51,845 nucleotides of DNA from Escherichia coli (GTDB lineage: Bacteria; Pseudomonadota; Gammaproteobacteria; Enterobacterales; Enterobacteriaceae), in the NCBI RefSeq assembly GCF_003334315.1, contig NZ_QOWR01000030.1; one strand, written 5' to 3'. This document shows positions 19,439-20,077 of the stretch, piece after piece; the stretch's first letter is position 1, and every line of letters starts with the position of its first letter. The notes under the pieces were generated by a model that was not told the DNA's origin, searched no databases, and saw only the letters and a list, made by a program, of their open reading frames with translations. A program made the position numbers and the translations under genes.

Positions 19439-19855
19439 TTAAACCATCACCAGCGATAACTCTTTGCCAAGCGCCTTTGCCGCGAGCTGGACGGCGTCGA
19501 TTTTTGTCGCATGATGCAAGTTAAATAGGCGAGTAATCTCCTGTTTAGGTTTGCCAATTCGCCTGGCTAACTCTTGCTGAGTGATTTCTGACTGTAAAAA
19601 AGCATTTAACAGCAATACCTTAGAGGCGACGCTCAAAGGTACTTCAATAAAGTGATCGTGACTATTTAATGGCGAAGGTAAAGGGATAAGCTCGTTATCT
19701 TCAAAATAAAAATCAAATGCGGTCAGTAAAGCATCTTTTGCCGCTTCCATCGCTTCAGCGACAGTTTCGCCCTGGGTCAACGCTTCAGGGATATCCACAA
19801 AAGAAACCATATAACCGCCTTCCGGCGCGGGTGTAAGAGTGACGGGATAACGCAT
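19439..19855 (-). CDS. hicB: HicB antitoxin, 138 aa
   Basis: ORF 19439..19876 trimmed to ATG at 19855 (MRYPVTLTPAPEGGYMVSF...); C-terminal HTH. Confidence 0.9.
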   Translation of the reverse strand: MRYPVTLTPAPEGGYMVSFVDIPEALTQGETVAEAMEAAKDALLTAFDFYFEDNELIPLPSPLNSHDHFIEVPLSVASKVLLLNAFLQSEITQQELARRIGKPKQEITRLFNLHHATKIDAVQLAAKALGKELSLVMV

Positions 19856-19900
19856 AATTTCGACTGTCTCTCGCATGTCATTAACCTTTTTAATTGGCGA

Positions 19901-20077
19901 TTAACTCAAACCGAGTTGTTTCAGGATTGCTTTACGCAATGGTTCTTTAATCTCATCGCAGGGGTGACGCGGCATGACACTGCGCCTCCCATGAAACCTG
20001 AGTTTCAAATGGTTGCTGCCATTCGCTACATCGACGCCCTGAGATTCGAGCCAACGTCTGAACTCGCTTTGTTTCAC
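19901..20077 (-). CDS. hicA: HicA mRNA interferase toxin, 58 aa
   Basis: GTG-initiated, absent from the minus-strand ORF track; reverse complement translates MKQSEFRRWLESQGVDVANGSNHLKLRFHGRRSVMPRHPCDEIKEPLRKAILKQLGLS. Confidence 0.85.
   Translation of the reverse strand: MKQSEFRRWLESQGVDVANGSNHLKLRFHGRRSVMPRHPCDEIKEPLRKAILKQLGLS

Follow-up and report, generated by a model that had tools for sequence, protein, structure and literature searches.

An intact, K-12-identical chromosomal hicAB toxin-antitoxin operon with a GTG-initiated toxin gene in an Escherichia coli contig

The module described here, which occupies positions 19,439 to 20,077 of the window (the whole 51,845-nucleotide stretch of Escherichia coli DNA that was analysed), is almost certainly the chromosomal hicAB type II toxin-antitoxin operon of E. 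coli, intact and identical to the K-12 version. Positions 19300 to 20300 (1001 bp) showed 100% identity to E. coli K-12 MG1655 and numerous other strains, and RefSeq annotates hicA and hicB at the module positions. Because this stretch is identical to annotated hicAB and its proteins are identical to crystallised chains, the two genes are not a chance pair of open reading frames. A first-pass annotation made from the letters alone had proposed a hicAB type II module with a GTG-initiated toxin, and the identity to K-12 hicAB, the identity to the structures PDB 6HPB and 6U0I and the Pfam domains all agree with it. The alignment that it had recommended as a check gave 100% identity between both proteins and their K-12 counterparts. 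Differences that break the hicA frame or the helix-turn-helix (HTH) of HicB, which it had named as grounds for rejection, were absent, and both elements are intact. Its placement of the module between ydcR (17954..19360, minus strand) and yncJ (20299..20529, plus strand) was also correct. We found no evidence against the identification as hicAB. Rfam revealed no RNA family within or beside the module, and NCBIfam gave no match for HicA or HicB, which for HicA reflects the content of the library and not the absence of the family. The locus was already fully known, down to its structures and regulation, and finding it here is ordinary; the worth lies in a correct annotation, and as a discovery this piece of textbook E. 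coli biology matters little. A few points go a little further than routine annotation, namely that the GTG start is genus-wide, that the spacer comes in alternative architectures, that the toxin is lost frequently and that the hicB start is unsettled; they leave the identity of the locus unchanged. The coding features are as follows.

19901..20077, minus strand: hicA coding sequence, GTG start, 58 aa, TAA stop at 19903..19901; RefSeq WP_000813794.1 at the same K-12 position
20082..20087, minus strand: hicA Shine-Dalgarno (SD) sequence GGGAGG, 4 nt upstream of the GTG
19439..19855, minus strand: hicB coding sequence in its RefSeq form, ATG at 19855, 138 aa; antitoxin and repressor
about 19454..19594, minus strand: C-terminal XRE-type HTH of hicB (Pfam HTH_3)
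19856..19876, minus strand: possible N-terminal extension of hicB (MRETVEI, 7 codons), with ATG at 19876, 145 aa and a 24-nt spacer

The operon has a toxin-first order, with hicA running from 20077 to 19901 and hicB following on the same strand from 19855 or 19876. The claim of a GTG-initiated hicA of 58 aa was borne out on the minus strand at 19901..20077. The reading frame opens after a TGA at 20104..20102, and its first in-frame ATG is codon 35. The GTG is therefore the sole start that gives a complete HicA, and an ORF finder that accepts only ATG would miss the gene. An ORF listing that accepts GTG starts includes it. The annotation shows that a GTG-initiated gene of 58 codons can be recognised from raw sequence even though ATG-only ORF tracks miss such genes. 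The duplex between the hicA SD and the 3' end of the 16S rRNA has a predicted energy of -11.1 kcal/mol. HicA matched the Pfam family HicA_toxin (PF07927, E 3.7e-7) over residues 5-57, covering model positions 3-58 of 58, and all 58 residues were identical to chain A of PDB 6HPB (100%). It thus has the domain that defines a HicA toxin, a small RNase of 50-100 aa with a double-stranded-RNA-binding-domain fold. His23, the catalytic residue of HicA (PMC8138530), is encoded by CAT at 20011..20009. An ATG-TGA start-stop (gATGTGAaa) was observed at 20074..20079 on the minus strand, overlapping the hicA GTG and 2 nt from the SD. We set it aside as a functional element, since it is Escherichia-specific among the related loci and sits so close to the SD, and it is probably incidental.

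The longest ORF of hicB, delimited mechanically, starts at ATG 19876 and encodes 145 aa, sharing its end at 19439 with the 138-aa RefSeq form. In 145-aa numbering, HicB matched HicB_lk_antitox (PF15919, E 1.3e-7) at residues 10-74 and HTH_3 (PF01381, E 2.8e-7) at residues 95-141. It has both parts expected of this antitoxin, an N-terminal HicB-like partial RNase H domain together with a DNA-binding HTH at the C-terminus. The 138-aa form was 100% identical to chain B of PDB 6HPB and 6HPC, and the 145-aa form to chain A of PDB 6U0I (145 aa plus tag).

The working of this system has been described for E. coli K-12. HicA, a small RNase, adopts a double-stranded-RNA-binding-domain fold, and folded HicB covers its active site; in the crystallised complex, an A2B2 heterotetramer, HicB dimerises via its HTH (PMC10865869; PMC8138530). 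K-12 HicA cuts mRNAs independently of translation and stops growth. It is toxic on expression and is neutralised by direct binding of HicB (PMC11594946, PMC10865869, PMC8138530 and the 6HPB complex), and HicB is degraded by Lon (PMC10865869). Transcription of E. coli hicAB rises on amino-acid starvation and, according to the literature, is also induced by CRP-Sxy. Two promoters have been reported (PMC11594946; PMC6957337; PMC8138530). The upstream one, P1, contains a CRP-S site; CRP-Sxy activates this promoter, HicB leaves it unrepressed, and both proteins are made from it. The downstream one, P2, is under HicB repression, which an excess of HicA relieves; its transcript, beginning about 1 nt ahead of the ribosome-binding site of hicA, yields HicB alone. 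The operator hicO is an inverted repeat in P2 that is bound by HicB dimers (PMC11594946; PMC10865869).

Judging from the sequence, this published mechanism should apply to the copy in the window. HicA (58 aa, His23) would cleave mRNAs independently of translation and arrest growth, and HicB would bind it through the N-terminal HicB-like domain and cover its active site. A HicB dimer, formed through the C-terminal HTH, would bind the hicO inverted repeat in the promoter region. CRP-Sxy at the CRP-S site would activate P1 and give an mRNA for both proteins. The P2 transcript would start about 1 nt before the ribosome-binding site of hicA and for this reason would make only HicB; derepressed by excess HicA, P2 would replenish the antitoxin. 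The elements upstream of hicA on which this regulation is likely to depend are listed here.

20110..20127, minus strand: perfect inverted repeat GTAAACA-CTAA-TGTTTAC, candidate hicO, just upstream of the candidate P2 -10
20096..20104, minus strand: candidate P2 -10 TGaTATACT (extended -10), identified by eye and from the literature description, with no recognisable -35
20128..20298, minus strand: remainder of the intergenic region between hicA and yncJ, where P1 and the CRP-S site (from the literature) and the divergent yncJ promoter must lie

The 7+7 palindrome was found with a custom script, and a repeat finder run at seed 6 reported no inverted repeat. Perfect arms of at least 7 bp occurred in 134 of 1000 shuffles, so the palindrome by itself is at chance level and the case for it draws on its conservation. 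The candidate -10 lies seven bases downstream. With the transcription start expected 7 nt after the -10 hexamer, P2 transcripts would begin at about 20089/20088, 1-2 nt upstream of GGGAGG, and this predicted position matches the published description of P2. By comparison with the second-hand descriptions of these elements in reviews, we infer that the palindrome is hicO and that the -10 belongs to P2. A simple scan for promoters and terminators detected neither a terminator nor a sigma-70 site upstream of hicA; being consensus-based, it missed the P2 -10 because there is no matching -35.

A scan of 20060..20300 for CRP-S sites (TGCGA-N6-TCGCA and related consensi) gave best matches with 3-4 mismatches in the 10 core positions, and for lack of a better match P1 was left unplaced. 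Across five aligned Escherichia lineages, E. whittamii and a divergent E. coli among them, two blocks of this region were invariant, at 20213..20250 (containing TTTTGCAAATTAGCGCAAAG) and at 20144..20159 (AGTGCTATTTTCGAG). These blocks may represent the CRP-S site and the -10 of P1, and the block at 20213..20250 could equally be the divergent yncJ promoter. A TTTGC-N8-GCAAA palindrome was observed within 20213..20250. In the literature, hicA is unmentioned in Cameron and Redfield 2006 and in Sondberg 2019, and full-text occurrences of the term hicO were unrelated acronyms only.

One HicB scan of species-representative genomes yielded 12 full loci from Escherichia, Citrobacter, Superficieibacter, Pantoea, Serratia and Brenneria. 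HicA from the five genera other than Escherichia was 79-86% identical to that of the window, and their loci share its GTG start, toxin-first order, two-domain HicB and G-rich SD. The codon aligned to HicA residue 1 is GTG in all 12 loci. A GGAGG stands a few bases upstream of this GTG in 10 of them, and the two Citrobacter loci carry a G-run (GGGGG/GGGGGG). We infer that the GTG start, kept across the genera, serves to restrain translation of the toxin. His23 is conserved in 11 of the 12 loci. The remaining one, from Brenneria roseae, is an otherwise intact gene in which the catalytic His is replaced by Tyr (NGTNYLKLR), and its HicA may be a naturally attenuated toxin.

The palindrome, in the form GTAAnCA-N4-TGnTTAC, was present at the same place upstream of hicA in all loci except that of Brenneria roseae (11 of 12). 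In Superficieibacter both arms have changed symmetrically, to GTAATCA...TGATTAC. Farther upstream, where it overlaps a TTGAC -35, a second copy occurs in the two Pantoea loci, Serratia and Brenneria salicis but not in E. coli. Conservation, symmetric change and second copies together form a pattern that fits an operator bound by a protein.

The spacer between hicA and hicB takes two forms in these genera. In Superficieibacter, Pantoea, Serratia and Brenneria the hicA stop is followed immediately by a GC-rich hairpin of 9 bp (loci L012 and L014-L018; about 25 nt, e.g. L014:1455-1476), with the sequence CCAGCCC-TCCG-GGGCTGG and no T-run. Its folding energy was -18 to -20 kcal/mol with z-scores of -3.4 to -4.3 in the three genera folded, whereas the E. 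coli spacer is unstructured (-3.8 kcal/mol, z 0.27). The hairpin recalls the noncanonical terminator of plasmid hicAB operons (PMC11878559). Escherichia and Citrobacter lack it and have instead an AAAGG or AAGAGG, 8-9 nt before an extra in-frame ATG upstream of the annotated hicB start; this ATG is absent in the four other genera. The GTG start, the hairpin versus the SD-containing spacer, the frequent loss of the toxin in E. coli and the ambiguous hicB start could feed a small comparative study of how the toxin:antitoxin ratio is set in toxin-first modules.

According to the first-pass annotation, hicB encodes 138 aa and begins 45 bp downstream of hicA. This stands for the start at ATG 19855, which leaves a spacer at 19856..19900 of exactly 45 nt, with the caveat that the in-frame ATG seven codons upstream is also plausible in Escherichia and Citrobacter; if unused, 19856..19876 is simply the 3' part of the spacer. 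Production of Escherichia HicB mainly from ATG 19876, as a 145-aa protein after a 24-nt spacer, would be in keeping with the AAAGG 8 nt upstream of it, ATG 19855 being preceded by only a GAGAG, 12 nt upstream. Citrobacter has the same in-frame ATG, the same 7-codon length and the better AAGAGG element, and the 145-aa form has been expressed and crystallised (6U0I). However, an upstream ATG is missing from Superficieibacter, Pantoea, Serratia and Brenneria, whose hicB begins at the methionine of MRYP. The Pfam domain begins only at residue 10 of the 145-aa protein, and the extension changes quickly and by non-conservative substitutions, with SQII in Citrobacter in place of TVEI and a change from E to K in one E. 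coli allele. Both RefSeq and the 6HPB complex use the 138-aa form, and both starts have weak predicted pairing to the anti-SD (-3.4 and -3.0 kcal/mol). We regard predominant use of the upstream ATG as a tentative proposal that is rather doubtful, and keep the 138-aa form as the annotated antitoxin.

The frequent decay of hicA within the species bears on whether the copy in the window could itself be a non-functional remnant, as in many E. coli lineages. The region was matched in some part in 5417 of 5426 complete E. coli genomes, and at least 80% of it in 4218. A 61-nt probe across the central hicA segment matched 3443 of the 5426, so that about 63% keep this segment undeleted and about 37% are without it. 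A 445-bp deletion (equivalent to 19678..20122) in Nissle-type strains, including Nissle 1917, begins within the left arm of the palindrome and ends near codon 76 of hicB; it takes half of the palindrome, hicA and the 5' half of hicB, and leaves a hicB pseudogene. A 22-bp deletion in hicA (19939..19960, between TGCG repeats) leaves hicB intact, and the gene is annotated as frameshifted. The small deletion is present in roughly 14% and the large one in about 22% of complete E. coli genomes. A 1-nt hicA frameshift and a W9 stop were found in one further Escherichia genome each, and the genome with the W9 stop also has an 11-bp loss of the P2 -10. Within Escherichia, hicA has been inactivated repeatedly and independently by four different lesions, three of which leave hicB intact. 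In the window, however, both frames are intact and all 1001 bp equal the functional K-12 allele. This identity refutes the reading as a decayed remnant, to which we assign next to no probability.

The same pattern of loss can be read in terms of biological role. Anti-phage defence by abortive infection, or anti-addiction against plasmid-borne HicA, might be the main role of the operon, which would then not chiefly serve a stress response tied to starvation or competence. Within E. coli the operon is patchily present and has been lost repeatedly, as is typical of defence and selfish elements, and Gerdes 2024 (PMC10865869) argues from genetic contexts for HicA domains in phage defence. But none of the PADLOC defence models matched HicA, and HicB gave only weak, HTH-level matches. 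The operon occupies a conserved core-genome position between ydcR and yncJ and not a defence island, its published induction is by amino-acid starvation and CRP-Sxy, and the literature surveyed held no phage data for this locus. A main role in defence or anti-addiction is unlikely in our view. We give similarly little credence to the joint proposal that the conserved weak GTG and the strong SD form a throttle on toxin translation and that HicB is kept for a job independent of the toxin. If it were true, this job, at which the repeated loss of hicA beside a mostly intact hicB could hint, would be that of a transcription factor, or of immunity against HicA toxins of incoming plasmids.

Among known systems, the closest is E. 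coli K-12 MG1655 hicAB itself (b4532/b1438; 6HPB, 6HPC, 6U0I), with identical DNA across the module and both flanking intergenic regions, identical proteins, the same neighbours and no difference within the module. The two differ outside it only: the window is about 99.4% identical to K-12 and has a 1.3-kb low-GC insert between yncL and patD. HicA(T)B of IncI2 plasmids is likewise a toxin-first operon with two transcription starts, and its HicB-repressed P2 has been cited as analogous (PMC11878559). Its proteins, however, are only about 20% identical to K-12 HicAB, its HicB has a ribbon-helix-helix and not an HTH, and a noncanonical terminator between hicA and hicB raises its toxin:antitoxin ratio (PMC11878559), whereas the spacer in the window has no hairpin.

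Yersinia pestis HicA3B3, Burkholderia pseudomallei HicAB and Streptococcus pneumoniae HicBA belong to the same family and share the principle of neutralisation; HicB acts as a repressor of its own promoter, and its DNA binding is weakened by HicA in excess (PMC11594946). They form other oligomers and use distinct operators, and B. pseudomallei HicB exposes ribbon-helix-helix DNA-binding domains in contrast to the HTH of the window HicB (PMC11594946). Of these three HicB proteins, only that of S. pneumoniae was detectable by sequence, and weakly (5YRZ, E 0.0057). Control by a double promoter is documented for E. coli alone (PMC11594946). Outside the family, mqsRA and Haemophilus influenzae toxTA also place the toxin gene first and have an extra downstream promoter for the antitoxin alone, and toxTA is CRP-S/Sxy regulated as well (PMC6957337, PMC8138530), but their RelE/ParE-like toxins belong to protein families unrelated to HicAB.

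Elsewhere, the first-pass count of three toxin loci in the window was upheld, with ortT at 10477..10650 (minus strand) and hokB in addition to hicAB. The hokB/sokB locus and the small RNA RydC lie about 17 kb from hicAB:

37292..37441, plus strand: hokB, type I toxin of the hokB/sokB locus
37146..37297, plus strand: sok RNA match (Rfam sok, 109.7 bits)
37857..37920, plus strand: RydC small RNA (Rfam, 92.5 bits)

The insertion relative to K-12 occupies 11047..12359 and has a GC content of 30-36%. It contains an ORF of 269 aa (11342..12151, minus strand) that RefSeq annotates as a CatB-related O-acetyltransferase, and it is present in 1155 of the 5426 complete E. coli genomes. Together with the divergence of about 0.6%, this insertion indicates that the window does not come from K-12. 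In its first 134 bases the window does not match the K-12 Rhs fragment. Its right end (49946..51845) is non-collinear with K-12, about 1.6 kb of K-12 sequence being missing after 49945, and from 50234 onwards it is unmatched to K-12. This end contains an ORF of 439 aa (50302..51621, minus strand), whose only domain is a C-terminal DUF2773 (E 1e-45).
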